Below the pieces are notes generated by a model that ran no database searches, was not told the DNA's origin, and was given only the letters and a program-made list of their open reading frames with translations. A program made the translations under genes and the position numbers. Shown piece after piece: positions 9,979 through 45,040 of a stretch of 64,000 bases of DNA; position 1 is the stretch's first letter, and each line of letters begins with the position of its first letter. The stretch lies in the NCBI GenBank assembly GCA_965204115.1, contig OZ241963.1:306489-370488 (forward strand). The letters run 5' to 3'. Origin of the DNA: Minisyncoccota bacterium. GTDB taxonomy: Bacteria > Patescibacteriota > Minisyncoccia > Phycocordibacterales > JABAAK01.

Positions 9979-11658
9979 TCATATCACTACACCGATAACC
10001 CGCTCAATTTCTTCCAAAGAGGTGATGCCTTTCAGCACCTTCCAGAGTGCGTCATCCTCCATAAACGGAAGCCCCTGTTTCCGCACTTCTGCGCGCAGTG
10101 TGGCAACCCCGCTCTCTTCCCGAATCACCCGCTCTATCTCATCGTTCACCTCAAACACCTCAAACACACCGATTCGCTTTTTGTATCCGTCGTTGCATTC
10201 CTGGCACTGTGGTGATGCTTCGCTTGGTCTTTTGATAGCATTTAAATCAAACTCCTCTTTATACCGCTCCGGAAATCGTTCTATCATCTGTTGTATTTTT
10301 TCTTTTTGCTCGTTCGTTAGCGGATGCTGTTCTGAGCAGACGGGGCACAGCTGCCGCACCAGTCGCTGTGCGATGACGATATTAATCGCTCGTGAAAATG
10401 CCTGCGGATCCACCTCAAACTGCAATAGTCGCGGCAGCGCGCCGAGCGCGTCGTTTGTGTGCAGGGTTGAAAATACTAAGTGTCCTGTCAATGCCGCCTG
10501 TACCGCCACCTGCGCGACTTCGGCATCACGAACCTCACCGACCAGAATAACATCCGGATCCTGCCTGAGGATGGCCCGTAGCCCTGAAGCGAACGAGTAG
10601 TCCTTATCAATTTCCGTCTGCACAATCCCCTCAAGCCGATACTCAATCGGGTCTTCCAGCGTTACGGTCTTGATATGCTCCCCTTTTACCTCGTTTAAAA
10701 ATGAGTACAGTGTCGTTGTCTTCCCCGACCCGGTCGGCCCTGTGTTCAAAATCATTCCATTCGGTCGTTTAATATGTTTCATAAATACCTCAAGTACCAC
10801 CGGATGAATTCCCAGACGCTCAATGCTATGCAGCACATTTCTCGGATCAAGGAGTCGTATGACGAATGAGCCGCCCTCGTCCTCCGGTATCACAGATGAC
10901 CGCATGCTTAATGTTCTTTTCGGAAGGTGTACCACGAAACCACCGTCCTGTGCCCCCCTTGCGGTTATTTTCATACCGGAGACCAGCTTCATCCGCGTCA
11001 CCATTTGTTTGTACTCCAGTTCATTGAGTTCGGTCATGTCGGTCAGCACTCCGTCTATGCGATACCGTATCACACCGCCCTCCTGTGCCGGCTCAATGTG
11101 TATATCAGACGCGTTTACTGCAACTGCCGTTGCCACGACATACTCTATATTTTTTGACACCCGATGCGCTCGGCTCATTTTTTTGAGCTCACGCAGCACC
11201 TCTCGCACCGCTTCAACTGATTGGATGCTTTGTATTTTTTCTTCCAGTTCTTCATTCGTGATAGACAGTGTTCCCGGCGCAGTCGCGCTTGTGGTGATGA
11301 TGTCCTTGTAGTACATCCATATTTGCTTCAGTGTTTTGGTTGATGCGAGGGTTATGGTGTGCGAGTACCCTTTTTCTTCCAACATGCGGAGTATTTCCGC
11401 CAGTTTTTCATTATTCGGCTCATTCACCGCTACCGTCAGCACCCCCTTCAGCCGCTTATACACCGCCATCTTCCCCTCCCGCGCATCAACTTCTTTCACC
11501 AATTGCAGTGCGTCAGGATTCACCTGCACATCAGTGATGCGAATTGCGGGATATTGATACTTCTTAGAAAGGTAATCCATTAACCGCTCCTCTTCCTCTT
11601 CTCGGTGCTCCCGCAAATCTTTTTGAAATTCCTGCACTGGTGCATTAACGACAGTCAT
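9979..11658 (-). CDS. pilB: type IV pilus assembly ATPase PilB/GspE family
   Basis: A T2SSE N-terminal domain, Walker A NTGPTGSGKTTTLYS, the Asp/His boxes, and a C-terminal tetracysteine CPVC...CQEC. The longest ORF runs to 11745; the likely start is MTVVNA at 11658, with TATACT -10 7 nt upstream. Confidence 0.9.
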   Translation of the reverse strand: MTVVNAPVQEFQKDLREHREEEEERLMDYLSKKYQYPAIRITDVQVNPDALQLVKEVDAREGKMAVYKRLKGVLTVAVNEPNNEKLAEILRMLEEKGYSHTITLASTKTLKQIWMYYKDIITTSATAPGTLSITNEELEEKIQSIQSVEAVREVLRELKKMSRAHRVSKNIEYVVATAVAVNASDIHIEPAQEGGVIRYRIDGVLTDMTELNELEYKQMVTRMKLVSGMKITARGAQDGGFVVHLPKRTLSMRSSVIPEDEGGSFVIRLLDPRNVLHSIERLGIHPVVLEVFMKHIKRPNGMILNTGPTGSGKTTTLYSFLNEVKGEHIKTVTLEDPIEYRLEGIVQTEIDKDYSFASGLRAILRQDPDVILVGEVRDAEVAQVAVQAALTGHLVFSTLHTNDALGALPRLLQFEVDPQAFSRAINIVIAQRLVRQLCPVCSEQHPLTNEQKEKIQQMIERFPERYKEEFDLNAIKRPSEASPQCQECNDGYKKRIGVFEVFEVNDEIERVIREESGVATLRAEVRKQGLPFMEDDALWKVLKGITSLEEIERVIGVVI

Positions 11659-11726
11659 TGCTGTCAGTATAGCATACACGCCCGTGAGGGTAACAAAGTA
11701 CAATACCGTTTGCGGCGATGAGCGGT

Positions 11727-13052
11727 CTACAGCCGAAGCATCCAAAGTGCCATATCATACTTGTTCACAAAAAAGAGGAATTCTCCATCCGGGGTGAGCT
11801 GCGGGTGTATGACATCAAAGTTCGTGTTTCTGGAAAGTATTTGAATTTCTTCCTGATTAGGTGCGAGTAACAGATCCTTTTCTCCGGTTGCGGCGTTCAC
11901 TGACACGATTACATCGTCAAAGGTGATGTCCCCCTGATACCATGAATCGGGAAATACTGTGTCATAGCCGGAAACTGTTTCAATGGGGATGGATATCGGC
12001 GCGGCACAGACAAATATGCCGTTCGCCGCATCGCACTTCTCAGGTAGTGTGATCGGGAGATCAATGGTAATACTCCGATCCCGATTGGTGATAACTGCTT
12101 TTCCGGCAAAATTATCCGCCTTTGTTTCAAACAGCATAAAATATCCCGTTGTTGCGTCCATAAACGCAGACCCGCCGGATGCGAGAGATACAAACTGTTC
12201 ATTCGGCAGCACTCCCTTCGGGTCAACGAGGTAGATGAATCCCTTCATCATGTCGGTAATCGGTGTGTGGAGGGTGATACGCGGACTGTTGCCCCAGCGT
12301 GGCAACCATGAGGCGAAATCTGACCGCCATATTACCTGTGTTTTTGATGGATTTGCCACATCAACAACAACCCCGACGGATTTGCCGTCAATCATCTGCA
12401 GAAAAAAGAGGAGGTTTTTATTATTCGTAGCAACCCGAATATTATCCTCAAACCGCTGCACGCTCGGACCGGTGCCGGTTGTAGAAAATGGTACAAACGC
12501 TGATCGCACCACGGATTCATTATCGGCACTTTCATACAGCACCAGCACTTCACCGTTCTCAAACGGATACCCTTCAATAACCCGAGTAAATTCACCGCGC
12601 GCGGTCAGTGACAGTGAGTATGGGATGGTCTGTACCAGGTATCGATTCCCCCGCCCCTGCTCAATGACCTGTGCCTCCCATGCGTCTCCTTTTTTTTCAA
12701 TGCGATACCCCGCCGTCGGGCCTTTGAACAGCCGCACTAATCGCGGTATGTTTTCTTTGTCTTCAGTACCAGGGTCACTGGTATCAGATAGCGGAGCTGT
12801 GTATACCCGATCATCCCGCCCCTTTCCGTCACTATCATCGGAAACTGAAGGATTAAAAGGTATTTCATCCGGTCTTGACACCCCAAGATTGTCCAGACCA
12901 AGCGATGGCGCTGTCGGTGCCGGTGGCCCATCGGGTGGTGGCGCGGGTGCCGGCGGCTCTGCTGAAAGATATAGGTAGATACCCGCAAACAGCAGCGCAC
13001 AAAATACCAGAAAAATAATAATGGCGATGGTGAACCGTTTTGTAGGGGTCAT
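11727..13052 (-). CDS. hypothetical membrane-anchored secreted protein with Pro-rich linker and a beta-rich C-terminal domain
   Basis: Likely start is MTPTKRF at 13052 (TATACT -10 8 nt upstream). It has a signal-anchor (IAIIIFLVFCALLFAGIYLYL), a PAPAPPPDGPPAPTAP linker and a C-terminal domain. Confidence 0.5.
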   Translation of the reverse strand: MTPTKRFTIAIIIFLVFCALLFAGIYLYLSAEPPAPAPPPDGPPAPTAPSLGLDNLGVSRPDEIPFNPSVSDDSDGKGRDDRVYTAPLSDTSDPGTEDKENIPRLVRLFKGPTAGYRIEKKGDAWEAQVIEQGRGNRYLVQTIPYSLSLTARGEFTRVIEGYPFENGEVLVLYESADNESVVRSAFVPFSTTGTGPSVQRFEDNIRVATNNKNLLFFLQMIDGKSVGVVVDVANPSKTQVIWRSDFASWLPRWGNSPRITLHTPITDMMKGFIYLVDPKGVLPNEQFVSLASGGSAFMDATTGYFMLFETKADNFAGKAVITNRDRSITIDLPITLPEKCDAANGIFVCAAPISIPIETVSGYDTVFPDSWYQGDITFDDVIVSVNAATGEKDLLLAPNQEEIQILSRNTNFDVIHPQLTPDGEFLFFVNKYDMALWMLRL

Positions 13053-13303
13053 ATATAGGTAGTATACTCCACTAGAGAATGTCTTTGCCATTCCTTATTG
13101 GTCTCTTGGATAACACCACTCCTCCAGTTCATCCTCGTTAATTGCTGGTGTGATGCAAAAAGCAGGCAAGGGGCCTTTTTCAAAGTACAGCACCGCTTCA
13201 GTGCCGGTATTAGTGTTCATCCAGTTAGTTCTTGTTGTTGTGCTATCAAGCGTTTTTCTTGTTTCGTGTTTAGAATCCACGCTGCCCCTGGTGATAGTGA
13301 GCC

Positions 13304-15409
13304 TTAATGGCTTCTTGGCTGTAGACTCGACTGGATGGGTACCCCAGCCGGTACAGATGTACCCTGTTTCACTTCATCGCGTGCTGAACCTCTGGTATTT
13401 TCATCGGGGCAGCCTATGACTGGCGGTGCAACGCTAGAAAGTTTTCCGCTATTCTCGTTTCCCTCTCGCAACACCAGGAAACACGCTGTTTCTCCTCTGA
13501 GCGGTTCTTTACATTGGCCAGTCTTTTTACCCTTCTCATTCACCAGCACCAGCATGGGGGTTATTCGAAAAATATCGTTGTGGTTGACTTCCCCAATTTT
13601 GACAACCCAGGGACCCGCTGTGCTGTCCGTTATTTTGAATGTAACCTTTTTGCCATTACCTGTTGAACTATACACTCCTTTACTGGTTGTGCAATCAGAT
13701 GAATCTTTTTTCGTACAATATTGGACCTTTCCACTGTCAATATGGTAGCCGGTTACAATTCCTTCAACACTGCTGAAGATGCGACCGGGGTTTTGAATGG
13801 CTGGAAAATCGATGGTAATAAATTCACCGTTCTGATTGCGAGTAATCCCTTGAGCAACAGTTATATTGCCGCTGAGTTTTACTTTTTCTTTTCCTAAGGT
13901 AATGCAGTCATCAGCATCAAATTTAGGCTTATGCCTCCATGGCTTCCCGCGCCAAAATTTTACCACCTTCCCTGGATCCTTTTCATCTTTCTTCACCACA
14001 ATAGATACGATAGGAAAGACAGCGATAATGTCTGAATTTTTTATTGTCGCCTTTATCTTTGTCTGTGGTTCGCTTGTGCACTTCCTGACGCCGACCAAAC
14101 TATCACCTCCTTCCGACTGGTCTCTGATCTTGTCAAATGCCCTATCCTCTCCTTCCTCGGACACCTTTACCTCTCCGCCAAAATCTGAATATAAAATCTG
14201 ATAATGGTACTGTAGCGGGACAGTGGTGGAATAGGGTCCCTGCTGCAGTGACTGCCTCACACTTTCTACTTGCCCTTTGAAATTATCTTCAATATCAGGG
14301 CATGCACTTATGGTTAGGAGTCCTGTCTCTTTATCGTAGTTGACGGCCTTATCCGGGACGGAAAGATTGGCTGTAACCAGGTTGTTACCTTGCCCGACTT
14401 CCCGCAGCTGGGTGATTGTTTTGAATAGTTGCGGACGGAGGAGTGAAGGGTCAATAAAGTCAAGGATAATCCATGAGAGGAGCAGGATGATGGTGCCGAT
14501 GGCGGCTGCCACCACTCTCTTTTTTGCATCGGAGAAACCCGAGACATTTCCGGTGAACTCGGCGTAGATCATTTGGGTGCCGTGTACGGCAAGCATTACT
14601 ACCATCAAAATTCCGGAAACGGTGAAAATGACACGGAAGAACCGGGTGAAAAATTTTTGAATTAAGCCGCTTACCGCTTCCTGATTGGCATCAGTTGTAT
14701 TAATTCTTTCTGCGCCCCAAATACTGCTGTAGAGATTGAGTATTGTCGGGCTTCCTTTTGTGATGCTCTTACTTGTGGTTGTTGACGCTGTTTCATCATC
14801 GTCGTCGCTGTCATCTCCATTGGCGGATTGAGCGTTTGTAGCAAGGCCATTATGTATGTCTTGTGTAATATCTCTTGTTATGAATTGTATATTTTTACTT
14901 CCCGCCGCTTCTTTGTATCCGACATAGACACAGAGCGTGTGTATTTTTTCCTCAGGATTGTTAATGCTATAAGGAGCAAAAAGGTTGCTTGTTGGTGTTA
15001 TAGATATTGTTGCTGCTGCAGGGTTAAATGCTTCAAAAAGTATGTTGTCAAAAAAATCTGGGTCATTGTTCTCTTCTTCTATTCTTACAAATTCCTCCTT
15101 ATACGCCTCAGCACCCTTTAGGACGAGGCCGTCATCACCGCATTCAACATCAGAACTCCCCGCTACAAATCCATAGCCCCAGTAGTATGTATATGTCAAA
15201 TCATCCTGAGAAACGAGGCTGCGAAGATCAGAAAACCGTGTATTTACTACATATTCATACGTACCTGGATCTTCTCGTTTTTCTCCTGCGGATATAAAAG
15301 TAGGGCGACCCAGATTCGCCTGTGCAAACAACACGCCGCCCATTAATCCGCAGATACTACAGACGAAAAGTAAACTGAATATCAGATTGTTGTAAATCTT
15401 TGTTTTCAT
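13304..15409 (-). CDS. large envelope protein with a signal peptide, Asp-rich segment and a central two-helix membrane hairpin (TrbC/VirB2-like topology)
   Basis: Likely start is MKTKIYNNLIFSLLFVCSICGLMGGVLFAQA at 15409. The hairpin is FFRVIFTVSGILMVVMLAVHGTQMIYA-loop(GFSDAKKRVVAAA)-IGTIILLLSWIILDFI, followed by a ~390-aa C-terminal domain. Confidence 0.5.
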   Translation of the reverse strand: MKTKIYNNLIFSLLFVCSICGLMGGVLFAQANLGRPTFISAGEKREDPGTYEYVVNTRFSDLRSLVSQDDLTYTYYWGYGFVAGSSDVECGDDGLVLKGAEAYKEEFVRIEEENNDPDFFDNILFEAFNPAAATISITPTSNLFAPYSINNPEEKIHTLCVYVGYKEAAGSKNIQFITRDITQDIHNGLATNAQSANGDDSDDDDETASTTTSKSITKGSPTILNLYSSIWGAERINTTDANQEAVSGLIQKFFTRFFRVIFTVSGILMVVMLAVHGTQMIYAEFTGNVSGFSDAKKRVVAAAIGTIILLLSWIILDFIDPSLLRPQLFKTITQLREVGQGNNLVTANLSVPDKAVNYDKETGLLTISACPDIEDNFKGQVESVRQSLQQGPYSTTVPLQYHYQILYSDFGGEVKVSEEGEDRAFDKIRDQSEGGDSLVGVRKCTSEPQTKIKATIKNSDIIAVFPIVSIVVKKDEKDPGKVVKFWRGKPWRHKPKFDADDCITLGKEKVKLSGNITVAQGITRNQNGEFITIDFPAIQNPGRIFSSVEGIVTGYHIDSGKVQYCTKKDSSDCTTSKGVYSSTGNGKKVTFKITDSTAGPWVVKIGEVNHNDIFRITPMLVLVNEKGKKTGQCKEPLRGETACFLVLREGNENSGKLSSVAPPVIGCPDENTRGSARDEVKQGTSVPAGVPIQSSLQPRSH

Positions 15410-16358
15410 TTTGAGCAAATACACGAACAGGTATCTCGGCACCTTCCCCGCGGACAGAAATATCAAGCTTTCTGCCCTCCTTGAGGTGGCTTGCCTCGTT
15501 GTTCACAAACCATTTATATTGTATCGCATTTTTTTCAAAATCGGACTGACTGAAGTAAAACGGGTACACCGAAGCCGTCACTTCCTCGCTGCCGGGCGAA
15601 AGATATTCAGAAAAAACCCGATCCCGCGAGAGTCCGTATAGGAGTGTGTGAGGATACACCAGCAGCCGCGGCTCAACAATAGGCACATTGGTTACTTTTT
15701 CAAAAGAGACCCTGCCACTGCTGATGAGCGTTGCCTCTACCCGCACGATAATATAGCGGTTGAGGTAGCTCCCTCCTTTTTCATACACTACGCTGCTTGC
15801 CGCCGGACCACGCTCGTCGTGGTAGCGCGATTCAATCATCCAGCGGAATGAAAAATCTTTTTCGGTGTAAATAATACCGCTCTGATCAATATACTGCACC
15901 TTTGCTGAAAGCTTTATCGGTGTCTGTGGTCCCGCTAGCCGGTGCCCTCGATACAGCGGCGTGACAACCGAGTCCGCCTCCCAGAGAATATCAAAAACAA
16001 CCGGTCGTATCCATCGGGAAATATTGGCAAATCGCCGCTGCCCCTGTGAATCAAAGTACTGTATCCGCGCAACAACCTGTTTCGGCACGCTACCGGCAAT
16101 TTCAGTAATCTTCGTCTTGTTTGTATATGCCGCCTGTTCAATACCGTCAATCTGCCAGATAATTGAATGGATACTGGAGACAAACGACTGGTTAGAGCGA
16201 ATGGTGAAATCAACATACTCGCCCGGCGACGGGTAGGGTTCACTCACCGATATCTCATACGCGCTGTAGCTCCCCTGCTCTTGCCCGAATACTATGGGAG
16301 TCAGTAAAAAACCCGCTAACAAAACAGCATAGAGCCAAAAAAGAAATGCAATCCGCAT
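15357..16358 (-). CDS. hypothetical secreted protein
   Basis: 333 aa with an N-terminal signal peptide (MRIAFLFWLYAVLLAGFLLTPIVFGQ). TATACT -10 lies 8 nt upstream (16367-16374). Confidence 0.5.
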   Translation of the reverse strand: MRIAFLFWLYAVLLAGFLLTPIVFGQEQGSYSAYEISVSEPYPSPGEYVDFTIRSNQSFVSSIHSIIWQIDGIEQAAYTNKTKITEIAGSVPKQVVARIQYFDSQGQRRFANISRWIRPVVFDILWEADSVVTPLYRGHRLAGPQTPIKLSAKVQYIDQSGIIYTEKDFSFRWMIESRYHDERGPAASSVVYEKGGSYLNRYIIVRVEATLISSGRVSFEKVTNVPIVEPRLLVYPHTLLYGLSRDRVFSEYLSPGSEEVTASVYPFYFSQSDFEKNAIQYKWFVNNEASHLKEGRKLDISVRGEGAEIPVRVFAQNENKDLQQSDIQFTFRL

Positions 16359-16391: not shown

Positions 16392-17132
16392 CTACAGGAA
16401 TTTTTGCAAAAACTCCGGTGGTCCCACTGCGCTGAAGAATGACAGATCGCCGACGAGGAAAAATATACCGAGCGCGATGAAGAGTAGCCCGCCGATGACG
16501 CGCATGGTCGGTAGGAATTTTGGTATCTCCTGCAGCCGTTCCGCTGCTTTGGTGTAGAGCAGTGCGAGGATGGTGAGCGGCAGCATAATGCCGAGTGCAA
16601 ACGCGAACAGTAGGAGCATTCCGGTGAGCGCTGATCCGGAACTTGCCGCCAAGGTCAACACTCCGCCAAGCACCGGACCGATACATGGCGACCACCCTGC
16701 CGCGAATATCGCGCCGATGAGGAAAATGCCCCACCATGAGTGCACCGGCAGCATTTTCGGTATCGGAAATGATTTATTACCAAGCAATCTTTCCGGCAGC
16801 GGCACTGCGCGCAGTAACACTAATCCGACCATGATAAAGAAAATTGCGCCGATAATCACCAGTATTGGTTTTGCTTGATTAAACAGTGCCACGGTTCTGC
16901 TAAACTGCCCGAACAAGCCGGCAACACCGCCGAATAAGGCGTATGTTGTCGCAAATCCGGAAAAAAACCAGCTCGTTGTTGTGAGGGTGTACGGAATGTT
17001 GTTGCTGTCCTCGTCGCCGATGATGAGTGCGATATATCCCAGCACCATCGGATAAGTACACGGCAGAAAGACGGTGATAATCCCCGCCAATATAGTTACG
17101 GAAAAACTTATAATGGACAGCTGTTCTATCAT
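16392..17132 (-). CDS. ccdA: cytochrome c-type biogenesis / thiol-disulfide transfer membrane protein CcdA (DsbD family)
   Basis: Six TM helices with the two conserved Cys motifs FLPCTYP and WSPCIGPVLG. Confidence 0.85.
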   Translation of the reverse strand: MIEQLSIISFSVTILAGIITVFLPCTYPMVLGYIALIIGDEDSNNIPYTLTTTSWFFSGFATTYALFGGVAGLFGQFSRTVALFNQAKPILVIIGAIFFIMVGLVLLRAVPLPERLLGNKSFPIPKMLPVHSWWGIFLIGAIFAAGWSPCIGPVLGGVLTLAASSGSALTGMLLLFAFALGIMLPLTILALLYTKAAERLQEIPKFLPTMRVIGGLLFIALGIFFLVGDLSFFSAVGPPEFLQKFL

Positions 17133-17842
17133 TGTACTTCTTGCAGGAGGCCCCGCACCTGCTCCAATGGCAATGCGCCCGGTATGGAGCGCACCGCTTT
17201 GGTCTTTTTGTTGACCAGGAATGATCCCGGTGTGCCGTTGACCCCCATTTTCTGTGCATCGTTCATATGCTGCTCCACGAGCTGCTGCTGCTTACTGCCT
17301 GCCGCAACACATGCGTCTATTTGCGCATCAGAGAGGCCGTTTTCTCGTCCCAGTGCTTTATAGGTTTCAAGACTTAGTGCGGTTGCGGTGAATACGCCGT
17401 CTGTGTATGTCCAGAATGCGTCGTTCCCCTTGTGGGTCTTCACACATTCACCAATGGCAGCGCCGTCTTTTGCGGTCACATGAAATGGCAGCGGTAGGTG
17501 CCGGTACACCCACATAACTTCCCCACTGTCCACCAACGCCTGCACCGTCGGGTGGAATCGCTTACAAAATCCACATTCATAATCAGAGTACTCAACCAGT
17601 AGTACATCCCCGCTTCCGCGTGTTGCATCGTTATTTCGTACGGTCAGTATGTTAAGGTCCGGCGTGATCGGTGGCGGTCCCGGCGGCACTTCTCCCGCCG
17701 GCGGGTTGCCCTGTGGCTGTACCGCCACAGTTCCGCTTTTTCCGTGTATCATTCCGGCATAGAAAATTGCCGCTATGGCAATGAGGACCGCAAGTGCGGT
17801 GATCATGTTGTTTGTTTGATTACTGTTTTTTTCTGTACTCAT
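17129..17842 (-). CDS. membrane-anchored DsbA-like thioredoxin-fold thiol:disulfide oxidoreductase (CXXC = CGFC)
   Basis: A TM anchor and a DsbA/COG1651-like core (VLLVEYSDYECGFCKRFHP). It overlaps the ccdA start by 4 nt, which suggests an operon. Confidence 0.8.
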   Translation of the reverse strand: MSTEKNSNQTNNMITALAVLIAIAAIFYAGMIHGKSGTVAVQPQGNPPAGEVPPGPPPITPDLNILTVRNNDATRGSGDVLLVEYSDYECGFCKRFHPTVQALVDSGEVMWVYRHLPLPFHVTAKDGAAIGECVKTHKGNDAFWTYTDGVFTATALSLETYKALGRENGLSDAQIDACVAAGSKQQQLVEQHMNDAQKMGVNGTPGSFLVNKKTKAVRSIPGALPLEQVRGLLQEVQ

Positions 17843-17907
17843 AGTGTTTTATTGTTTTTTGTAATTATTAAACTGATTATGGTTATAGCATACCATACTT
17901 TACTTCA

Positions 17908-18615
17908 TTATGGTTTTGCTTTTTCTACCAACACCTTTACCCGCTGCAAAAACTTGCTGTATTCATTCGCGTACGAGATGCCAATCGGTCGGTCTTTATA
18001 TACTACCACAATATACGGTGTTCCGCGGGAACCCAGCCGCCATCCCTCGTTACTGTCCCGCTCTACCCGACTCCGCACCCGCTTATCCGTTGAGATACAT
18101 TCCTGAAATTGCCGCGCGTCTGTCCCCAATGCCGCTGCCTTATTCGCCAGTGCTTTTGCATCGTTGATATCTCGCTGATTTTCATACACATACTGAATAA
18201 ACGAGAAGAATGCTTCCTCGCCGGTATGTTTCGCCACACACTCGGCGGCAACCGCCGCTTCAAATGCGGCGCCTTTTTTCTGCGGATATAGGTGCCGCGA
18301 CACCACCAGCACCCCCTCTTCGTCGACGATCTTTTTAAAGCTCTCCCGCATTGCCGCGCACATAATACAGCTTAAATCTGAATACTCAATCAGCACCACT
18401 TCCGCGTCAATATCACCCTGGGTGTGGTCAATAGACCGCACATCGGTCATGCCGATTACGGTGTGCTGTGAGTCAACCACCCCGATACCTGCTGCAATAT
18501 GTTTCAGGACCCGCACCATCGGATGTTCCACATACAACAGTACCCCCGCTACCATCACCACCGCCACACACACCACCACTATCCGCCGTACATTCATTTG
18601 TCGCACATTCTGCAT
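17908..18615 (-). CDS. second membrane-anchored DsbA-like thiol:disulfide oxidoreductase (CXXC = CIMC)
   Basis: VVLIEYSDLSCIMCAAM motif. Likely start is MQNVRQ at 18615, with TATACT -10 8 nt upstream at 18624-18629. Confidence 0.7.
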   Translation of the reverse strand: MQNVRQMNVRRIVVVCVAVVMVAGVLLYVEHPMVRVLKHIAAGIGVVDSQHTVIGMTDVRSIDHTQGDIDAEVVLIEYSDLSCIMCAAMRESFKKIVDEEGVLVVSRHLYPQKKGAAFEAAVAAECVAKHTGEEAFFSFIQYVYENQRDINDAKALANKAAALGTDARQFQECISTDKRVRSRVERDSNEGWRLGSRGTPYIVVVYKDRPIGISYANEYSKFLQRVKVLVEKAKP

Positions 18616-18798
18616 ATGCTTACAGTATATCGCTATCTGGGAGCTCTGTACTTGGTATCTGCCACAGCCACCGCACGACAAGGGATGATGATTGAGGAGA
18701 TATGAGGCAGATACTACGGCTTTTTAATAGAGGGCAATTTGAGCTGCTGAATACCCTGTAAAATGGTAAAAACCTTGATTTTACTGCCTTTCTTGGGG

Positions 18799-20068: not shown

Positions 20069-21184
20069 CTACCCCTCCAATGCCCGTAGAGCAGCGCCGA
20101 CGGCGACGGAGAATTCTGATCCGCTTTCTTTGAGGGTTTCGCTGAGGAGGGCAGGATGCCGCAGCCGTGAAAAAGGGTTTGCTATCTCAACACTGTTTTT
20201 TGTTTTTGCCTTCACCTCTTCCAGAAGTCCTTTCATAGATGCGCCGCCGCCGGTGAGTACAATCTTAGAGATGGATTGACGGTATCGCTGCTCAAAATCA
20301 ACAATCGCGTTGTTTGCTTCCGTGAAAATCTCATCAATAACTAATGACATCGCATGGCGGACTTCCTTGTCCTCTATGGTAAAGCCGAATTCCCGCTTTT
20401 TGTGTTCTGCCTCTTTGAATGATATGTCTTCCGCGCGCGCTATTGCCTGCGATATATTCTGCCCTCCTTGGTTTACGAAAAATGATCGAAGAATAATGCC
20501 GTGTTCAACGACATATAGTTTTGTGGATCGCGCCCCTATGTCGATGATGATGACCGGAAGCCCGCCATCATACACCGAGGAACGAAGTGTGCTGAATATC
20601 TCAATTTCAAAGTATTGGGTGTTTAGGGCAGTTTTCCCCAGAATGTTTTTATGTTTGATAAGTTCGTGGTTGTGAATGGCGATGAGGAGCACTTTTCGTT
20701 TTTCACTCTGTGCGATAGGTGCAATGTCATCCTCAAAAATAGGCGCGTCATCCCGTCTCAAGAGTGCCTGTGGCACTACAAACCAGTCCAGCGATACATC
20801 TTCCAATGGTACCGGGATGTATCGCTTTGCCTCAAAAGGAATGGTTTGCGCTATTTTCTCATCGGAGAGTGCCGGCACTTCAATGAGTGATATCAAGCTG
20901 GAGTGAAATGGTATGGAAACACACGCCAGCGATGCGGTTATCTTTGCTTCTTGCAGCAGCGCCGCTAATACCGTGTGCAGCACTTCTTCACCGGCGTTTG
21001 CGTGCTGTCCAATCTCAGTATCCTCCACATAGGGTCCGATTGCCAATGATCCGTAGGTCTCTAAGACGGCAACCCCTTTTTCCTGCCGCACTTGTACCAC
21101 TTTCACTGCGGATGACCCGATGTCTATCCCGACAACACTGTGCTTGCCCCTCTTTAAAAACGAAAAAACTCGTGGTATTGGCAT
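20069..21184 (-). CDS. pilM: type IV pilus assembly protein PilM (actin-like ATPase)
   Basis: VGIDIGSSAVKVVQV phosphate-1 motif, IIDIGARSTKLYVV and LTGGGA motifs; 371 aa. Confidence 0.85.
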   Translation of the reverse strand: MPIPRVFSFLKRGKHSVVGIDIGSSAVKVVQVRQEKGVAVLETYGSLAIGPYVEDTEIGQHANAGEEVLHTVLAALLQEAKITASLACVSIPFHSSLISLIEVPALSDEKIAQTIPFEAKRYIPVPLEDVSLDWFVVPQALLRRDDAPIFEDDIAPIAQSEKRKVLLIAIHNHELIKHKNILGKTALNTQYFEIEIFSTLRSSVYDGGLPVIIIDIGARSTKLYVVEHGIILRSFFVNQGGQNISQAIARAEDISFKEAEHKKREFGFTIEDKEVRHAMSLVIDEIFTEANNAIVDFEQRYRQSISKIVLTGGGASMKGLLEEVKAKTKNSVEIANPFSRLRHPALLSETLKESGSEFSVAVGAALRALEG

Positions 21185-32804: not shown

Positions 32805-33206
32805 TTACCAAATTGAAAAAAGTGCCTCGCCACCGGTATGCCCCTTGCGTGCTTCATCGCCGGTGAGTATCCCCTTCGGCGTTGAGAGGAATAGTGTGCC
32901 GTGGCCGCTTCGGATCGGATGAATATCCTGCACGCCGAAGTAGACCCGCCGTCCCGGCTTTGAAATTCGTTTCACATCACGCACCTTGTGCTTGCCGTCT
33001 TCATGGTAGGCGAGGGTGATTATCAGCTCTTTTTTCGTGCCGTGTCCCTGCGTTTCCACATTTTCAATGTAGCTTGCGGTACGCAATTTTTGCGCTATAC
33101 TGTTCCTTTTTTTGGAATACGGTACCTCAATCTTTTCTTTGCGCACCATGCCGGCGTTTTTAATCCGAATGATGAGATCCGCGATGCTGTCTGTTACCAT
33201 TACCAT
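32805..33206 (-). CDS. rpsH: 30S ribosomal protein S8
   Basis: [25 protein letters not shown] signature. Confidence 0.9.
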
Positions 33207-33469
33207 GATGATTTCTTTAGTCCGGGTATATACCCTTTTTGTGCCTGCTCCCGCACGCATATCCGTGACAGACCGAACGCGCGAATGTACCCGCGTGGCC
33301 GTCCGGTGATAAAGCAGCGATTACGAATGCGTACCGGCGAGGCGTTTCTCGGCAGTTTTTGCAGTCCTTCCCAGTCGCCCGCCGCTTTTAGTGCTGCCCG
33401 CTTTTTCGCGTATTTTTCTGCTAATCGCACCCTTTTTTGGTTGCGTGCTATCAGTGATTTTCTTGCCAT
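33200..33469 (-). CDS. rpsN: 30S ribosomal protein S14 (long form)
   Basis: [28 protein letters not shown]...[26 protein letters not shown]. Confidence 0.9.
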
Positions 33470-33651
33470 ATGTATTTCTTACACGAAGCAATATCACACA
33501 CCATTATCTTTGTCCAGCCCTTTTGCGGAACAAAGAAAACCCTGCGGATTAACTCCGTTGGGAGCAGTATAGCATACTTTTTATACAGGATATGTGCTTT
33601 TATGTGTTTTGCTCCTGAGTAAGCATTTCTTGAAAGATGTGGTCAGGACTC

Positions 33652-36600
33652 TTAATTATTGCTGTAAACAGAAAAATGATCATCGTAATTGCCAAGGAGC
33701 GCATTACTCTCCATTCCTGGTATGCCTTTGATGTGGTCTACAACATCGCTATTTCTTGTTTCGAACACGGCTCGTAACCCGGCATTGCCGGCTTCTTCAA
33801 TGAATGTTTTTACCTTCCTTTTGAATGCTTCTTTTTCGGTGTCTGTAAGATTCTTATAGATGACGGGGCTTCCATTTTTTCTAAAAGCAATGTCAACGCA
33901 GGTGCCGGTATAGTGACAGTTGTTGCTATGTGGTCGTGTCGGCGGCCATGCTTCAGTTACTATCCATGTAAAATCTTCAATATTTTTTTTGAGACTGCTT
34001 TGTAATTTTCCTGCGAAACCGCTAACTACTTTATTGCTCTCAGCCTCTTTGAGCAAACCTGATGGGAGGTCGTTGCAGTTATTACAACTACAGTTCAGGC
34101 CTGATTTTCTTCTACTTCTCCGTCTTAGATGCCCTTCACATACTGCAATCTCTGCATCTTGTTCGCCCTCTTGTGGTCCTGCGTTGCCGCCCCTGTTATC
34201 ATCAGCCGGTGATTGACCGGAGGTTCTTCCTGGTGCCGGCTCCATATCATCCACAGGAGGCAGTTCTGCTTCGTTCCACTGGAACGGATTGCCCAAGTTG
34301 TAGCCGATGATATTAAATCCTGCGTTGACGATGAGGTAGGCACTGAGGATGAATATCAGCCCGAAGAGTATCGCTCTGAGTGCGTCCTTCACTTTCTTTC
34401 GCGCTTCCTGATCGCCTCCTTTTACGAACACATTAATTGCTAATACTGCCCCTCGGTAGAAAATGAGTATTCCCGCGCCGGTGATTGCAAGCCATAGCAG
34501 GAGTTTCATTATATTATTCGCTAATTCAAATAGGTGCTCTATACCACAATCATTTCCTTCCCCAAAACTGCAATTTACGATGAGGTTTGACTCTTCTACC
34601 TGATCATTACTGGTAATACTCACGGAATAACTACTGCTGGCAGTGGGGCTTCTACCGCTAACTGAACAGGTAATTGAGCCGGACGACTCAGGTGTGTCGT
34701 CATCAGTGGTTTTCATGGTAAAAGAGCCGGTGGTGTCCCTTTGGGTGGAGAATGAGAGCGGCGTAGCACCCCACGCGCCTCTTTCTTTGCAAGAGACCGT
34801 GAAACCCTCTTCTGTCGCATCTTGCCGCCGAGTAATAGTCCACTTAATACTTTCTCCCTCGGAAATACGAGCGTTATCTGCCTCTATGGTAAAAGGAGGC
34901 GGATTGGCGGGAGATGATAAGCGTGGATCGGGTGGTGCGTTGCCGCCATCATCACCGTTCCCGTTGTCGCCATTACCATTGCCGCCATTGCCACTGTCTG
35001 TCGTTGTTGTCGTAGAATCTACAGTACCGTCTTCATTAACGGTGGTACGATGTGTTTGTTCAATCTCATTTGAGAAATCGTCAGTTGTTCTCACAACAAC
35101 TTCCAGATTGGTTTCTCGGTCCGGGTCTACGGCATTAGGGATGGTTATACTCCAAGCGCCAGTTTCCGAATCAGCAGTAACAATGCTGAGATCTTCACTC
35201 AACGGTATGGTGGCTTCATTGCTTGTTACGGAAACAGCGGCAACCGTTGAGCCGGGTTCCGCCGTGCCGGATATGGTGGCCGACGGGGCGGCAGGGGCTC
35301 CTCCGACAGAAAATCTGATACCTCTGTTATAGGTGGTGTCTATGGTCACATAGTACTCCGCCTTCTCATAGTCAGTATTAGTATCATCTTTTCTGGAGGC
35401 GAAACAGAAAGTGTATCCGTTATCAGTCGCCGCACCAAGAGTGACCGGAGAGCCTTCTGTGTAGGTATTTTCCAATCTATCCCATACATAAATATCGGAA
35501 CCGCAAGGTTGATTTTTATATATTTTCTGCATCCGCCACGAAGTCTCTCCACGAGGATAATTATCAGTTGCGCGGAAAGTTATTGATTGTACACGACTCC
35601 CACGATTATTTTCCATCCCTGCAGGATTTGTCTCTTTATCAAAAGTTATGACAACCGGTCTATCGTCTAAAGCCCCTCCTTCTTGACGGTCACCCCAAAA
35701 GCAAATTGCCGTACTCCCTCCATACCCGCGGCATTGATATGAATTACTTGTGCCACGGGGAGGTGACTGCGCACAACGACAGCCACCAGGCGCACACTTA
35801 CCATTGAATACACTTCCTGCGCTACAGCCCTCACAAGTTCCGGAATTATTTCCACCGTTCTTTCCCTCACAATACCACGCGGCAAAAGTTCCTAAGTTTT
35901 GCCGGCAAAAACAAGCCCATGTAGCGGATGCGGTTGATGCGCTTATTTCAGTGCCGGCGACACACCTTGTTTGAAATGTGCCGCATTTGCCATCCACTAC
36001 ATTTTTTACTGTAACTGTTATTGTTCCACTTTTTCCTTGTGGGTCCTCATTGCATTGATCGTGAATGGGATTTCCACCCTCTCTCGGAGTGTCAGTGATC
36101 TCCCCGGTACAGAAATACGCTGAAAAATTTATAGTATATATATCTTCATCTTTTGTGTCTTCCGCAACCTCAGGAGCATTTGTTATTCTGATCATCTTAT
36201 CATTGGCTCCCTCCCGGGATTCATAGGTAATCCCTTCTGGGGCTTCTATCTCTATCCGCTTCATATATGCCCCTTCCTTGTTTGCGCCGGTAAAACAACT
36301 TTCATAAATATCCAACCAGGCACTTTCTTCCTGAAGTTCTTTCACTTCAAGCTCACAATCACCTGATCTATATTCCACGCTTCCCTCATACTCATTCTTA
36401 AAGATCATCCCTAACAATGTTTCACCATCGTTGCTGCTTTTGTTGTTAGGGTCACACGATAAATCATTGTCAATTTGTTCCGGTGTCTTTTCCCACCAAT
36501 CAATTTTCACAAAATCAGGCAAATCCCGCTTAAGTGTTTTGTTGATCTTGTCATTTTTAGGGTTTTGATAAAATATCCTGTATATTGCAAATTTTCCAAC

Positions 36601-36936
36601 ACCTGCAGGGTCATCCAAACCGCCGCCGTCTCTGTCTTTGACATGCTCCACCGTAAACCAATTGTTCTCAAGATTTTGATTTGGCTGTACCTCAGAGCAG
36701 TCAATACTATTAAATGGGATTTCAATTATTTTATTATTAATTTGAGATTCGCCGTTGACCGACTCAAAGTTCTTTTCAAAGGACCACTCACTTGTTGTGG
36801 TAAATACCTCGGGCCATGTCTCAGGACGAATTATTACCCCTTGTTTACCTTGCCCATACAGATTTACGGAAAAAAGGAATAAGAGGGATGGGACGATGAT
36901 AAAAACACCCAAAAGTGTCAATATATATATGCGCAT
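33652..36936 (-). CDS. giant (~1094 aa) secreted cysteine-rich surface protein with a C-terminal two-helix membrane hairpin and a putative LAS/M15-like peptidase domain
   Basis: Likely start is MRIYILTLLGVFIIVPSLLF (ATG 36934-36936, TATACT -10 9 nt upstream). It has a Cys-rich module, a GNGGNGNGDNGNG low-complexity stretch, the hairpin LLLWLAITGAGILIFYRGAVLAINVF-KGGDQEARKKVKDALRA-ILFGLIFILSAYLIVNAGF, and a C-terminal domain with HYTGTCVD (HxxGxxxD) and later DH motifs. Confidence 0.6.
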   Translation of the reverse strand: MRIYILTLLGVFIIVPSLLFLFSVNLYGQGKQGVIIRPETWPEVFTTTSEWSFEKNFESVNGESQINNKIIEIPFNSIDCSEVQPNQNLENNWFTVEHVKDRDGGGLDDPAGVGKFAIYRIFYQNPKNDKINKTLKRDLPDFVKIDWWEKTPEQIDNDLSCDPNNKSSNDGETLLGMIFKNEYEGSVEYRSGDCELEVKELQEESAWLDIYESCFTGANKEGAYMKRIEIEAPEGITYESREGANDKMIRITNAPEVAEDTKDEDIYTINFSAYFCTGEITDTPREGGNPIHDQCNEDPQGKSGTITVTVKNVVDGKCGTFQTRCVAGTEISASTASATWACFCRQNLGTFAAWYCEGKNGGNNSGTCEGCSAGSVFNGKCAPGGCRCAQSPPRGTSNSYQCRGYGGSTAICFWGDRQEGGALDDRPVVITFDKETNPAGMENNRGSRVQSITFRATDNYPRGETSWRMQKIYKNQPCGSDIYVWDRLENTYTEGSPVTLGAATDNGYTFCFASRKDDTNTDYEKAEYYVTIDTTYNRGIRFSVGGAPAAPSATISGTAEPGSTVAAVSVTSNEATIPLSEDLSIVTADSETGAWSITIPNAVDPDRETNLEVVVRTTDDFSNEIEQTHRTTVNEDGTVDSTTTTTDSGNGGNGNGDNGNGDDGGNAPPDPRLSSPANPPPFTIEADNARISEGESIKWTITRRQDATEEGFTVSCKERGAWGATPLSFSTQRDTTGSFTMKTTDDDTPESSGSITCSVSGRSPTASSSYSVSITSNDQVEESNLIVNCSFGEGNDCGIEHLFELANNIMKLLLWLAITGAGILIFYRGAVLAINVFVKGGDQEARKKVKDALRAILFGLIFILSAYLIVNAGFNIIGYNLGNPFQWNEAELPPVDDMEPAPGRTSGQSPADDNRGGNAGPQEGEQDAEIAVCEGHLRRRSRRKSGLNCSCNNCNDLPSGLLKEAESNKVVSGFAGKLQSSLKKNIEDFTWIVTEAWPPTRPHSNNCHYTGTCVDIAFRKNGSPVIYKNLTDTEKEAFKRKVKTFIEEAGNAGLRAVFETRNSDVVDHIKGIPGMESNALLGNYDDHFSVYSNN

Positions 36937-37002
36937 ACTATTGTCAGTATACTGCACGAAACATACTTGTAGTGCCTATGCGGCTGTGCTATCATATATC
37001 CT

Positions 37003-37575
37003 ATGATACTCACCGATCAACAAATAGCCCCGATAGAGGTTTCTGCGCGTCGTGCGGCTGGTTTTAGTGTGGGCGATACCGTGCGTGTGCATCAAAAAAT
37101 CACTGAAAAGGATAAGACGCGTATACAGGTTTTTGAAGGCACCGTTATCGCTCGCAAGCACGGCACCGAGCCGGGAGCGACATTCACCGTCCGCCGTGTC
37201 GGTACCGACGGCATTGCCGTGGAAAAGATATTCCCGCTCTACACTCCCGTCATAGATCGCATAGAGGTTGTCCAAAAGGTCAAAACCCGCCGAGCAAAAT
37301 TGTATTTCCTTCGTGGCAAAACGCCAAAACAAATTCGTGAAAAATTGCGCAATACTATGGCGGCTATAAAAGAAACGGTAGCCCCTGAGGCGCAACAGCA
37401 GGAGCAGAAGAAAGAAGAAATGGAACAACAGCCTGAAGCACAGCAGGATGAGCAAACAAAACAGGAGGAACAGCCGGAAACGGCGGCACCGGAGACACAG
37501 TCCGACCCGGCACCACAATCAGACGACACACCGCAGCCGGAAGCATCTTCAAAACCTGACAATGCTGCTGAATAA
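37003..37575 (+). CDS. rplS: 50S ribosomal protein L19 with an acidic Gln/Glu-rich C-terminal extension
   Basis: GDTVRVHQKITEKDKTRIQVFEGTVIARKHG...FTVRRV signature. Confidence 0.9.
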   Translation: MILTDQQIAPIEVSARRAAGFSVGDTVRVHQKITEKDKTRIQVFEGTVIARKHGTEPGATFTVRRVGTDGIAVEKIFPLYTPVIDRIEVVQKVKTRRAKLYFLRGKTPKQIREKLRNTMAAIKETVAPEAQQQEQKKEEMEQQPEAQQDEQTKQEEQPETAAPETQSDPAPQSDDTPQPEASSKPDNAAE

Positions 37576-43210: not shown

Positions 43211-45040
43211 TCACAAGGTATTTGCAGCGCGAATTCGCGCGTTTATGGACGGAATGGCCGAGGCGTCTCCGACAACGAACACTAAAATAGATCGACCGAA
43301 GAAGTAGTAGAGGATTTCTTTCTGGCTTGATGGATGTCGTACTACACGAACATCCTGATTATCAATAACACGGGATTCTGTTGTGACATTATTAACATTG
43401 ACCTGACTGAACACACCCGGAAAGACTGTGGAAAAGGCATTGATTGCATTTTTCTCCCAGTTGCGCATCCAGACAAAAGCGTCACCATACCTCCTTACCG
43501 AAGCGATGAGTATGCCGCTTGCATTGCTCTGTGTTTCATATTTTCCGACAAAGTAGTAGCTGTCAAAAGCATTTTGCAGACCGGACGGGAAGCTCAGGCG
43601 GAATGAGCGGGAGAAGTCCCGAAAGCTAATTTGTGATTCCTTTTCATTGATTACCTCGTAAGGCACATACTTCGTTACTGCATCCTGCTCACCATCTTGT
43701 TCGATGATAGATTGCCAAGTGTCCGATGGTATTATTGCCTCTGCCGTGTTCACAAACACCTGTTTTTCACTGCTTAGGATATCGGGCACCGGCAGTACAT
43801 CAGTTATTGTGTTGTCAGTAGCCGACTCTTCGGCGGGAGTCAGCGCGAGAAATAGGATAAAAAAGATAAGTCCGGCAAGGAGGAAAAAAATAATAGCGAA
43901 CAGCAGTATGTTTTGCCGCTGCAGAGGTTTGTTCGATATTTGCCCGTCGGGTGTGACAGCATATGACCGCACATCTCGAGCCCGCAATCCCATCTCTTGT
44001 AATTTTTCCTTTTTCCTTTTAAAATTCTTCCACGCATCTTTGATGGTTTCTTTTTCAACTGACTCCTGCTGTTTTTGCTGCATTACCTCCCGCTCTTTTT
44101 GTGTAAAGACATTTTCCGGGAGATTCTTACCGCGCAGACGCGCGAAGATTCCTCCCTTTTCTTTTTTCTGTTCTTCCGGCTCTTGTGCGGGCTGTTCTAT
44201 TTTCTTGTTCAGTTCGGATTGCTTTGACGATTGTTCTTGTGGTACTTCTTTTTTTGCCGCTTGGTCATGCACTGACTGCATATATGCAGCCGCGCCTGAG
44301 AGTGTGCGTGTTATATTTTTCTGATCAACGGACTGCTCATCAGTAGTGATGTCATTATCCGAAGTGGTGATATTATTATCCAATTTTACGGACTGCTCAT
44401 CAGTAGTACTATTACTATTCGCTTCTGCTGCATCACTCTGCTGCTGCTTCTGCTTTTTCTGTGTGAAGTTTTTATACTTATCCCGCAGCACCGCCGACTC
44501 TTTCATAATATCTTTAGCGTTTTGACGATACTCTTCCTGTGCCATTCTCTTCTCCTCTGTCTCTTTCGCCAGTATGGTACGCAATTCAGCACCACCCTTT
44601 GTTTGCGCGATTTGCTTTGTGTCGTGGTGGTAGGTTCGCAGCACCGGTATTATGTATTTCCCTTTCTTCTCTTTGTTCGGCGCTGTTTCTGCCGAGGTCT
44701 TTTTTGCAGATGATTTTTTGTTACTCACCTTTTTTTCCGCACCTTTTTTTCCGGAAGTATTATTCCCGCCGTCCCGCACAAACTCTCCTGCTGTATCAAC
44801 ACCAAAAGCATCAAGGGACGCAAGGTCAACATCGCCCTGACCAACACTGCCCTCGTCGGAAGCTTTTTTTTCATTCTTAGGCGCTCTGCCTTTTTGTGCC
44901 AAAGGTACCGTACCCGCGTCGCCTCTCAAAGCACCTTCTGTACTCTCTTGCGCGGTATCTTCCCCCTTGCCCCGCAAAACGGGTGCATCATTCCCTGTCT
45001 CCTTTATGTCATCAGGTCTCTTTTTTTCATCTTGTGCCAT
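43211..45040 (-). CDS. hypothetical bitopic membrane protein with a Lys/Glu-rich N-terminal region
   Basis: 609 aa: a cytoplasmic low-complexity region with TDEQSV repeats, a TM (ILLFAIIFFLLAGLIFFILFLAL) and a ~215-aa external domain. Confidence 0.45.
   Translation of the reverse strand: MAQDEKKRPDDIKETGNDAPVLRGKGEDTAQESTEGALRGDAGTVPLAQKGRAPKNEKKASDEGSVGQGDVDLASLDAFGVDTAGEFVRDGGNNTSGKKGAEKKVSNKKSSAKKTSAETAPNKEKKGKYIIPVLRTYHHDTKQIAQTKGGAELRTILAKETEEKRMAQEEYRQNAKDIMKESAVLRDKYKNFTQKKQKQQQSDAAEANSNSTTDEQSVKLDNNITTSDNDITTDEQSVDQKNITRTLSGAAAYMQSVHDQAAKKEVPQEQSSKQSELNKKIEQPAQEPEEQKKEKGGIFARLRGKNLPENVFTQKEREVMQQKQQESVEKETIKDAWKNFKRKKEKLQEMGLRARDVRSYAVTPDGQISNKPLQRQNILLFAIIFFLLAGLIFFILFLALTPAEESATDNTITDVLPVPDILSSEKQVFVNTAEAIIPSDTWQSIIEQDGEQDAVTKYVPYEVINEKESQISFRDFSRSFRLSFPSGLQNAFDSYYFVGKYETQSNASGILIASVRRYGDAFVWMRNWEKNAINAFSTVFPGVFSQVNVNNVTTESRVIDNQDVRVVRHPSSQKEILYYFFGRSILVFVVGDASAIPSINARIRAANTL

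Follow-up and report, generated by a model that had tools for sequence, protein, structure and literature searches.

Two large open reading frames (ORFs) on the minus strand of a 64-kb window (the whole stretch of DNA that was analyzed, 64,000 nucleotides of contig OZ241963.1 from a Minisyncoccota bacterium) code for proteins, termed here P1 and P2, in which two hydrophobic helices joined by a short basic loop form an internal hairpin. In both respects, the ORFs and the hairpins, this agrees with the original prediction, which had been made from the sequence alone and had proposed that the two hairpins are one and the same module. The hairpin of P2 is internal too because 215 residues come after it, and its earlier placement near the C-terminus does not really hold. 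The two genes and their parts are as follows.

13304-15409, minus strand: P1, ORF of 701 amino acids (aa) from ATG (MKTKIY)
15323-15409, minus strand: P1 signal peptide, aa 1-29 (MKTKIYNNLIFSLLFVCS...FA, followed by Q), from hydropathy; the leader is nearly identical across homologues
14795-15322, minus strand: P1 N-terminal ectodomain, aa 30-205, variable and dispensable, with beta strands in the AlphaFold2 (AF2) model
14405-14746, minus strand: P1 T4SS_pilin domain, aa 222-335, from PF18895 and an independent hairpin hidden Markov model (HMM)
14561-14653, minus strand: first transmembrane helix (TM1) of the P1 pilin domain
14516-14560, minus strand: basic loop of the P1 pilin domain
14450-14515, minus strand: second transmembrane helix (TM2) of the P1 pilin domain, then the FIDPSLL motif
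13307-14389, minus strand: P1 C-terminal ectodomain, aa 341-701, with conserved C370, C444, C643 and C667 and an FWRGxPW motif
33652-36936, minus strand: P2, ORF of 1094 aa
34573-36852, minus strand: P2 N-terminal ectodomain, aa 29-788, acidic, with 22 Cys; probably tandem beta-sandwich modules
34279-34572, minus strand: P2 T4SS_pilin domain, aa 789-886, from PF18895, the independent HMM and a shuffle control; it includes the Cys-loop NCSFGEGNDC
34423-34521, minus strand: TM1 of the P2 pilin domain
34381-34422, minus strand: basic loop of the P2 pilin domain
34297-34380, minus strand: TM2 of the P2 pilin domain
33655-34056, minus strand: P2 C-terminal domain, aa 961-1094, with W.VTE...CH-x6-CVD...HF motifs; tentatively a LAS-type zinc hydrolase

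The order of domains in P1 is signal peptide, variable beta-rich N-domain, T4SS_pilin hairpin and Cys-containing beta-rich C-domain; in P2, it is signal peptide, Cys-rich and beta-rich ectodomain of ~760 aa, T4SS_pilin hairpin, Pro/Gly-rich linker and small C-terminal domain. By hydropathy, each protein has three hydrophobic elements, an N-terminal signal-type segment and two internal helices, the latter at approximately aa 253-283 and 299-320 in P1, with EFTGNVSGFSDAKKR between them, and 806-838 and 853-880 in P2, with KGGDQEARKKVKD between them. AF2 modeled the P1 segment as a long helical hairpin (helices 240-286 and 289-318) and the P2 segment likewise as a helical hairpin, with low confidence (helices 800-840 and 843-876). 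The connecting loop is basic in both proteins; that of P2 has six lysines and arginines, versus none in either flank. The combination of a signal peptide, two hydrophobic helices and a short positively charged loop is thus found in P1 as well as in P2 by hydropathy, AF2 helices and loop charge. The ATG start of P1 is common to all homologues (alignment A1), and Q30 is invariant among them; a longer variant starting at TTG is unsupported by the alignment. The database copy of P1 (P0001, 679 aa, with a stored Pfam annotation that is already PF18895) begins at an internal Met (MGGVLFAQ...); the greater part of the conserved signal peptide is therefore missing from it, and the start was probably mis-called.

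The two hairpins belong to one domain family

Direct comparisons do not connect P1 and P2. No significant alignment between them was obtained with BLASTP, hhalign of the P1-family and P2-family hairpin profiles gave a probability of 11% with the hairpins out of register, and neither the HMM of the P1 family matched P2 nor that of the P2 family P1. These results rule out the proposal that the two are paralogous proteins: a domain is all that they have in common.

That domain is found, however, with broader profiles. The Pfam profile T4SS_pilin (PF18895; T4SS, type IV secretion system) has 71 positions and a gathering threshold of 26.6 bits. Scanned alone, both hairpins exceed this threshold, the P1 hairpin with 28.7 bits (E 1.4e-6, profile positions 7-71) and the P2 hairpin with 32.0 bits (E 1.3e-7, profile positions 5-69), and PF18895 is the sole relevant Pfam match on the full-length proteins (27.4 bits for P2). 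An independent HMM, built from 118 hairpins of distant metagenomic proteins, was compared with the 598 six-frame ORFs of the window, and only P1 (104 bits) and P2 (E 8.5e-7) were picked out, with their loops in register; the next ORF had an E-value of 1.4, and none of the many other membrane proteins encoded in the window was detected. As a control, the P2 hairpin was shuffled 2000 times with the composition kept within each helix and the loop. The real segment scored 30.5 bits against the independent HMM, compared to a mean of 0.9 and a maximum of 21.6 bits for the shuffled ones; thus, 0 of 2000 reached the real score. Taken together, the Pfam scores, the independent HMM and the shuffles indicate that the P1 and P2 segments are homologous members of one domain family and that their likeness is not compositional; a purely compositional likeness was one of the outcomes that the original prediction had named as its refutation. 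As far as sequence comparison reaches, the link between P1 and P2 is visible via the broad family profile only.

A search with the P1-family profile against 1.84 billion representative proteins produced 219 matches at E up to 0.001, approximately 30 of them full-length relatives and most of the others matching in the hairpin only. Among 122 distant hairpin proteins, some of which may be fragments, 106 match PF18895 (best E 1.8e-25) and 11 match PF04956 (TrbC/VirB2), so that the comparison to TrbC/VirB2 conjugative pilins made earlier was apt: via PF18895 the module falls in that superfamily. The consensus motifs of these 122 proteins are AGIL..., G-N...AK.R... and GL.LLL.S..ILNTINP.LL. P1 fits them throughout, including I.P.LL, and P2 fits TM1, the loop and TM2, without INP.LL. 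The loop signature first noticed in P1 and P2 is real and corresponds to the family-wide consensus G-N...AK.R...GL. The fit extends upstream of the P2 hairpin, where the region NCSFGEGNDCGIEHLFELANNI agrees with a Cys-loop followed by GI..[YL][FL]N, a motif that is also present in the PF18895 proteins P0116 and P0124.

Conservation and domain architectures

We found 18 homologues of P1, of which 14 have a stored PF18895 annotation, and only two of P2 (P0020 and P0021). A scan of GTDB species genomes yielded one relative, OY764332.1 (Candidatus Paceibacterota chromosome, 696,550 bp). A genome of this kind agrees with what the window encodes (type IV pilus ATPase, PilM, ribosomal proteins and SecY) and with its source contig of 661,662 bp. 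Conservation differs between the parts of P1. The N-domain is absent in 9 of 18 family members and has a mean identity of 22% where it is present; the hairpin and the following helix (FIDPSLLRPxLFxTITQL) are ~80% identical across the family; in the C-domain, identity is 46% over the first part, where there are invariant Cys, and 25% over the distal part. The pilin domain is bracketed by conserved motifs, PTT..KG.P..LHLYS before it and FIDPSLLRP after it (alignment A1). In the P2 family, the hairpin is 86-100% identical, compared to 37% for the C-domain (alignment A2). In these alignments the hairpin is the best conserved part of both proteins, which is unusual for a mere membrane anchor. Between the window and the related locus L001, P1 is 46% identical, whereas its two neighbors are 77-79% identical, suggesting that the P1 ectodomains are fast-evolving.

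The 122 distant hairpin proteins have a median length of 273 aa, and 30 of them are no longer than 180 aa. More than 100 aa follow the hairpin in 62 proteins and more than 200 aa in 32, whereas more than 100 aa precede it in 11, and only three (P0078, P0143 and P0148) have more than 100 aa on each side. Hence, among the proteins compared, a C-terminal extension is ordinary in this family, long inserts between the signal peptide and the hairpin are uncommon, and a large domain on each side is a rarity. The original remark that no described family places such a hairpin between two large extracellular domains is only partly upheld: the two-sided arrangement is rare and undiscussed in the literature searched, but an extension after the hairpin is common, and the N-domain of P1 is itself missing from half of its family. 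P1 and P2 resemble the usual architectures of the family to which an N-terminal ectodomain has been added, the base form appearing to be hairpin plus C-domain for P1 and hairpin plus a P0071-type C-domain for P2. Neither is a small protein like the strict VirB2/TrbC pilins (~70-120 aa, essentially a hairpin).

Hydrolase domains follow the hairpin in several of the 122 relatives (VanY in three, SLT in two, SLT_2 in one and NlpC/P60 in one). The PF18895 proteins P0093, P0116, P0124 and P0143 (loci L008 and L009; metagenomic) carry VanY or NlpC/P60 in this position, and judging from their domain content, proteins of this type look like VirB1-type functions held by a VirB2-type hairpin.

Pilin fusions in virB4 loci of relatives

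P1 is the middle gene of a trio, the other members of which are:

15357-16358, minus strand: upstream partner, 333 aa, secreted, no Pfam match
11727-13091, minus strand: downstream partner, 454 aa, with an N-terminal membrane anchor and a start probably at M14, no Pfam match

In related genomes, pilin-domain proteins of this kind share a locus with virB4 and further mating-pair-formation genes; the P1 family is represented in such a setting by L010 and the P2-type unit by L006, and other fusions occur in it in L003 and L008. The gene order of L010 is TraC-like, VirB4, 178-aa gene, 340-aa gene, P0018, 444-aa gene, yidC, rnpA, dnaN and dnaA, a layout that corresponds to the origin-proximal T4SS location described for Patescibacteria (PMC12102498). 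P0018 (819 aa) is a P1 homologue, the most distant member of the family, and is the sole PF18895 protein recorded in the T4SS stretch of L010. Its neighbors correspond to those of P1: the 333-aa protein is homologous to the 340-aa protein of L010 (E 1.8e-152), and the 454-aa protein to the 444-aa protein (E 1.9e-195).

Homologues of the flanking genes also occur in other loci. In L008, the order is VirB4, 345-aa gene, P0143 (T4SS_pilin and NlpC/P60, 514 aa), 557-aa gene (PG_binding_1) and yidC, so that P0143 lies two genes past virB4; in L003, it is TraC-like, PrgI, VirB4, 307-aa gene and P0078 (640 aa, hairpin 326-442). The 333-aa protein matches the genes between virB4 and the pilin fusion in both L008 (E 8.7e-13) and L003 (E 8e-6), and the 454-aa protein is homologous to the PG_binding_1 protein downstream of the pilin-NlpC/P60 fusion in L008 (E 8.2e-23). 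Pfam likewise assigns no family to the counterparts of the 333-aa and 454-aa proteins that T4SS loci encode. The synteny and the homology of the flanking genes indicate that the trio is a conserved T4SS-locus module that was parted from virB4 in the lineage of the window. For P2, the relevant locus is L006 (TraC-like, VirB4, P0071, jag, yidC, rnpA, rpmH, dnaA), in which P0071 (281 aa: signal peptide, pilin hairpin and the P2-type C-domain) stands directly after virB4. Other conserved genes of the virB4 loci without a Pfam family code for proteins of 884, 178, 783 and 313 aa (L010, 522-3176 and 6476-7012; L006, 3667-6968).

Ectodomain folds and the P2 C-terminal domain

Modeling of both proteins with AF2, as originally proposed, was informative for the hairpins, which were modeled in both, and much less so for the rest, with a mean predicted local distance difference test score (pLDDT) of 59.6 for P1 and 34.8 for P2. 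The P1 ectodomains are beta-rich, and aa 340-490 have a pLDDT of 70-86; a Foldseek comparison of the P1 model to the Protein Data Bank (PDB) brought up nothing with an E-value of 0.001 or better and pointed to generic beta-sandwiches only. The N-terminal region of P2 has weak Pfam matches to Reeler and Big_6, and Foldseek on the poor P2 model pointed to protocadherin and Ig-like repeats, which is suggestive only.

The C-domain of P2 is homologous to the C-terminus of P0071. It has no Pfam match, and as a single sequence it found nothing significant in the PDB. In a four-sequence alignment of P2-type C-domains (A4), the invariant residues are W..TE, CH-x6-CVD and a C-terminal HF, a pattern with the same H-x6-D...H spacing as the zinc ligands of LAS enzymes. 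The best match of the A4 profile in the PDB is the Sonic hedgehog N-domain at a marginal E-value of 0.035, with the alignment falling exactly on the zinc motif (LHYEGRAVDI versus CHYTGTCVDI). Comparison by hhalign of the P2-type C-domain with the VanY domains of hairpin fusions was negative (3.7% probability). We tentatively regard the P2 C-domain as a candidate peptidoglycan hydrolase (LAS-type, Hedgehog/DD-peptidase-like, MEROPS M15-like), an assignment made more plausible by the fact that other PF18895 proteins clearly bear cell-wall hydrolases after the hairpin.

Neighboring genes in the window

Read 5' to 3' on the minus strand, the genes around P1 are pilM ... dsbA, dsbA, dsbD-TM, 333-aa gene, P1 and 454-aa gene, followed by a pilB-type ATPase, ruvB, yebC, ruvC and PBP1; this order is kept in L001/L002 and L011. 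The start of P1 overlaps the 3' end of the 333-aa gene by 53 nt, out of frame (15357-15409). The same overlap is found in L001 (10001-10053, where the DNA is identical), L010 (8001-8053) and L011 (8001-8053), and its retention in these loci suggests translational coupling of the 333-aa gene and P1. The dual-coding stretch is exactly where the nearly invariant P1 leader (MKTKIYNNLIFSLLFVCS) is encoded; that the leader varies so little is probably due to the constraint of coding in two frames and to translational coupling, and not to anything special about the signal peptide.

Directly upstream of the trio, a DsbD-type membrane protein and two DsbA-like thioredoxins are encoded (16392-18681, minus strand; kept in L001 and L011), which may serve disulfide formation in the Cys-containing ectodomains. 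A PilB-type ATPase (9979-11745, minus strand; T2SSE, E 2.4e-101) lies directly downstream, and PilM (20069-21184, minus strand) upstream. Flanked by PilB and PilM, the trio appears as a T4SS-derived module inside a type IV pilus neighborhood in the lineage of the window. P2 is located between divergent rplS (L19) and rpsN/rpsH (S14, S8) at 32805-37575, an arrangement that is kept in L005. Beyond rpsN/rpsH the remaining, partial spc ribosomal cluster continues up to secY, and P2 effectively heads a ribosomal operon.

Three further large ORFs should be mentioned. A 692-aa protein (39436-41514, minus strand; 726-aa equivalent in L005) has a type IV prepilin N-terminal methylation motif (PF07963, E 7.3e-6) and the appearance of a giant pilin or pseudopilin; it looks like the second filament-subunit module of the window that is fused to a large ectodomain. 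Pfam gave nothing at E up to 0.01 for the ORFs at 58584-62780 (minus strand, 1398 aa) and 43211-45040 (minus strand, 609 aa); the latter has one strongly hydrophobic segment, aa 373-406.

Interpretation and alternatives

We consider it likely that P1 and P2 are T4SS-associated pilin-domain (PF18895) fusion proteins that expose adhesin-like, possibly wall-cleaving domains. The topology would be out-in-out, with the basic loop in the cytoplasm and, as the original prediction also had it, both flanks outside; pointing to this are the signal peptide and the charge of the loop, the abundance of Cys in the flanks, the dsbA and dsbD genes upstream of the trio and, in relatives, enzyme domains that act outside the cytoplasm. 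Following Sec export and cleavage of the signal peptide, the hairpin would insert into the cytoplasmic membrane in this orientation. In the F pilus, the loop between the pilin helices faces the cytoplasm as long as the protein is in the membrane and the lumen once it is in the filament, and both termini are outside (PMC5018250); flanking domains are thus topologically compatible with a pilus surface. P1 would be the pilin-domain component of the three-gene module that belongs to virB4 loci in related Patescibacteria, and P2 would be a unit of hairpin and small C-domain (P0071 type) to which an N-terminal ectodomain of ~760 aa was added. The conserved hairpin may dock to or be co-assembled by VirB4-dependent machinery, or be recognized by other pilin subunits, so that P1 and P2 would serve as accessory or minor subunits, at the base or the tip, or as surface proteins docked to a T4SS, rather than as a homopolymer. 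The fast-evolving ectodomains would contact the host cell, and peptidoglycan may be cut by the C-domain of P2. The identity of the domain, the strong conservation of the hairpin and the T4SS synteny in relatives are shown, as are the arguments for the topology, whereas an interaction with a T4SS in the source genome, any polymerization, adhesin function and hydrolase activity are elements that we infer.

Several observations weigh against this reading: (i) there are no virB4, TraC-like or PrgI genes within the window, hence no virB4 with other mating-pair-formation genes alongside P1 or P2; (ii) the trio in the lineage of the window sits between dsbD and pilB, outside a T4SS locus, and P2 lies among ribosomal protein genes; (iii) full-length P1 scores 23.5 bits against PF18895, below the gathering threshold, and neither P1 nor P2 has a direct match to PF04956 (TrbC) at E up to 1; (iv) on geometric reasoning, domains of 200-800 aa on each subunit would be hard to pack on a VirB2-type filament; and (v) the P1 model is mediocre and the P2 model unusable, leaving the ectodomain folds and the hydrolase assignment weak.

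The gene positions and the packing problem would be expected if an ancestral pilin domain had been co-opted simply to hold ectodomains at the surface, with no T4SS link left and no polymerization. Neither P1 nor P2 is encoded beside T4SS genes in the window or in the closest relatives, two-sided large domains look sterically awkward for a filament subunit, and it is established that Gram-positive T4SS hydrolases (PrgK, TraG of pIP501) are simply membrane-anchored (references in PMC4027160). We regard this alternative as unlikely, although it is the strongest one. Simple anchors usually keep hydrophobicity only, whereas the hairpin is far better conserved than the ectodomains; the flanking genes travel with P1, and their homologues flank a pilin fusion just downstream of virB4 in L010 and L008; and a P2-type unit adjoins virB4 in L006.

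At the opposite extreme, the sole VirB2 homologue encoded with virB4 in this Paceibacteria lineage would be a fusion of 500-800 aa, and the T4SS filament or its tip would be built from, or capped by, such subunits and thereby decorated, with the hairpins as the core and the globular domains outside. The domains displayed in such a structure would be adhesin-like or, in the P2/P0071/P0143 type, a cell-wall hydrolase. If true, this would be a conjugative-type pilus that binds and breaches the host envelope, an architecture undescribed for any T4SS. A homopolymer of such large subunits is unlikely on packing grounds, again by geometric reasoning, and we hold the decorated pilus to be more doubtful still than the mere anchor.

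The size of the fusions would matter less if proteolysis stripped the ectodomains and freed a small VirB2-like pilin that polymerizes, an extension of the leader and C-terminal processing of TraA/TrbC. It is established that these canonical pilins are processed at both ends; in addition, the 819-aa P1 homologue is the only PF18895 protein recorded in the T4SS stretch of L010, the P1 pilin domain is bracketed by conserved motifs, and half of the P1 family can dispense with the N-domain. Conversely, the first part of the P1 C-domain is conserved, with invariant Cys, which suggests that this part has a role in its own right; the hydrolase domains fused behind the hairpin in relatives would make no sense if they were cut off and lost; and no protease gene is evident in the trio. 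This maturation scheme is improbable in our estimation. Finally, the view that any two hydrophobic helices with a basic loop look alike has in its favor the negative pairwise and family-versus-family comparisons, but it is refuted, and left with a negligible probability, by the Pfam scores of both isolated hairpins, the selection of 2 of 598 ORFs by the independent HMM, the shuffles, and pre-hairpin motifs that fit the family too, such as the Cys-loop and GI..[YL][FL]N shared by P2, P0116 and P0124.

Significance

Patescibacteria depend on host cells. In the sole genetically tractable patescibacterial species, a T4SS with VirB2-like pilins is essential (PMC10633639). The present analysis shows that some lineages have the pilin domain fused within one polypeptide to large, fast-evolving surface domains and to cell-wall hydrolase domains, and that such fusions stand at a fixed position after virB4. 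They are thus concrete candidates for the parts of the T4SS that make host contact and breach the wall. There are also consequences for annotation: counting each PF18895 match as a small "VirB2 pilin" hides real architectural diversity, and the trio of the 333-aa gene, P1 and the 454-aa gene can be recognized as T4SS-derived even when it is away from virB4.

Comparison with known systems

VirB4 is present in 2,417 of 3,035 Patescibacteria assemblies, and VirB2-like pilins, which were catalogued with the profiles PF18895 and PF04956, in 1,948; their genes often lie close to virB4 and in some cases form arrays of 2-11 (PMC12102498). Such pilins are essential in Ca. Southlakia epibionticum (PMC10633639) and have been singled out as the one exception among monoderm T4SSs, which otherwise lack VirB2 (PMC12857230). 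The suggestion of a novel anchoring or polymerizing module therefore fails: the hairpin is already known and curated as PF18895, and P1-like proteins would count as "VirB2" in the published census (PMC12102498). The novelty, if any, is in the fusions. In the literature searched, the coverage of which was incomplete, we found no description of a VirB2-like hairpin fused to large ectodomains or hydrolases, nor a discussion of the pilin domain as part of proteins of 500-1100 aa or of a fixed three-gene module after virB4.

The closest known proteins are the VirB2-like pilins of Patescibacteria, such as those of the Ca. Southlakia epibionticum ML1 array and of Ca. Nanosynbacter lyticus TM7x, which share with P1 and P2 the domain, phylum, signal peptide, hairpin, loop and motifs; relatives of both P1 and P2 are encoded beside virB4. 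The published pilins are small and often in tandem arrays (PMC12102498, PMC10633639, PMC12857230), whereas P1 and P2 have 701 and 1094 aa with large ectodomains, and their genes are single, dispersed and away from any virB4 in the window. The canonical conjugative pilins TraA (F), VirB2 (Ti) and TrbC (RP4), represented by PF04956, have a helical hairpin like that of P1 and P2, and it is to this family that 11 of the 122 P1-hairpin relatives are linked. Unlike them, P1 and P2 have no PF04956 match of their own, the host is a monoderm, and there is no evidence of cyclization or acetylation; canonical pilins mature at ~70 aa, compared to 670-1060 aa for P1 and P2.

The hairpin-VanY, hairpin-SLT and hairpin-NlpC/P60 fusions resemble the VirB1-like peptidoglycan hydrolases of Gram-positive T4SSs, PrgK (pCF10), TraG (pIP501) and TcpG (pCW3), in having a membrane-anchored, outward-facing hydrolase domain associated with a monoderm T4SS. 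The LAS-like H-x6-D...H motif of the P2 C-domain would extend this comparison to P2, tentatively, given the marginal E-value and lack of a Pfam match. The anchor is different, however, namely a VirB2-like hairpin rather than a single N-terminal helix, and P1 has no hydrolase-like domain. Flagellins with variable outer domains and large type IV pilins also combine a conserved helical core with variable surface domains, an analogy of mechanism only, with no homology; in flagellin, the variable domain is placed between the core helices, whereas in P1 and P2 the core helices are placed between the variable domains.

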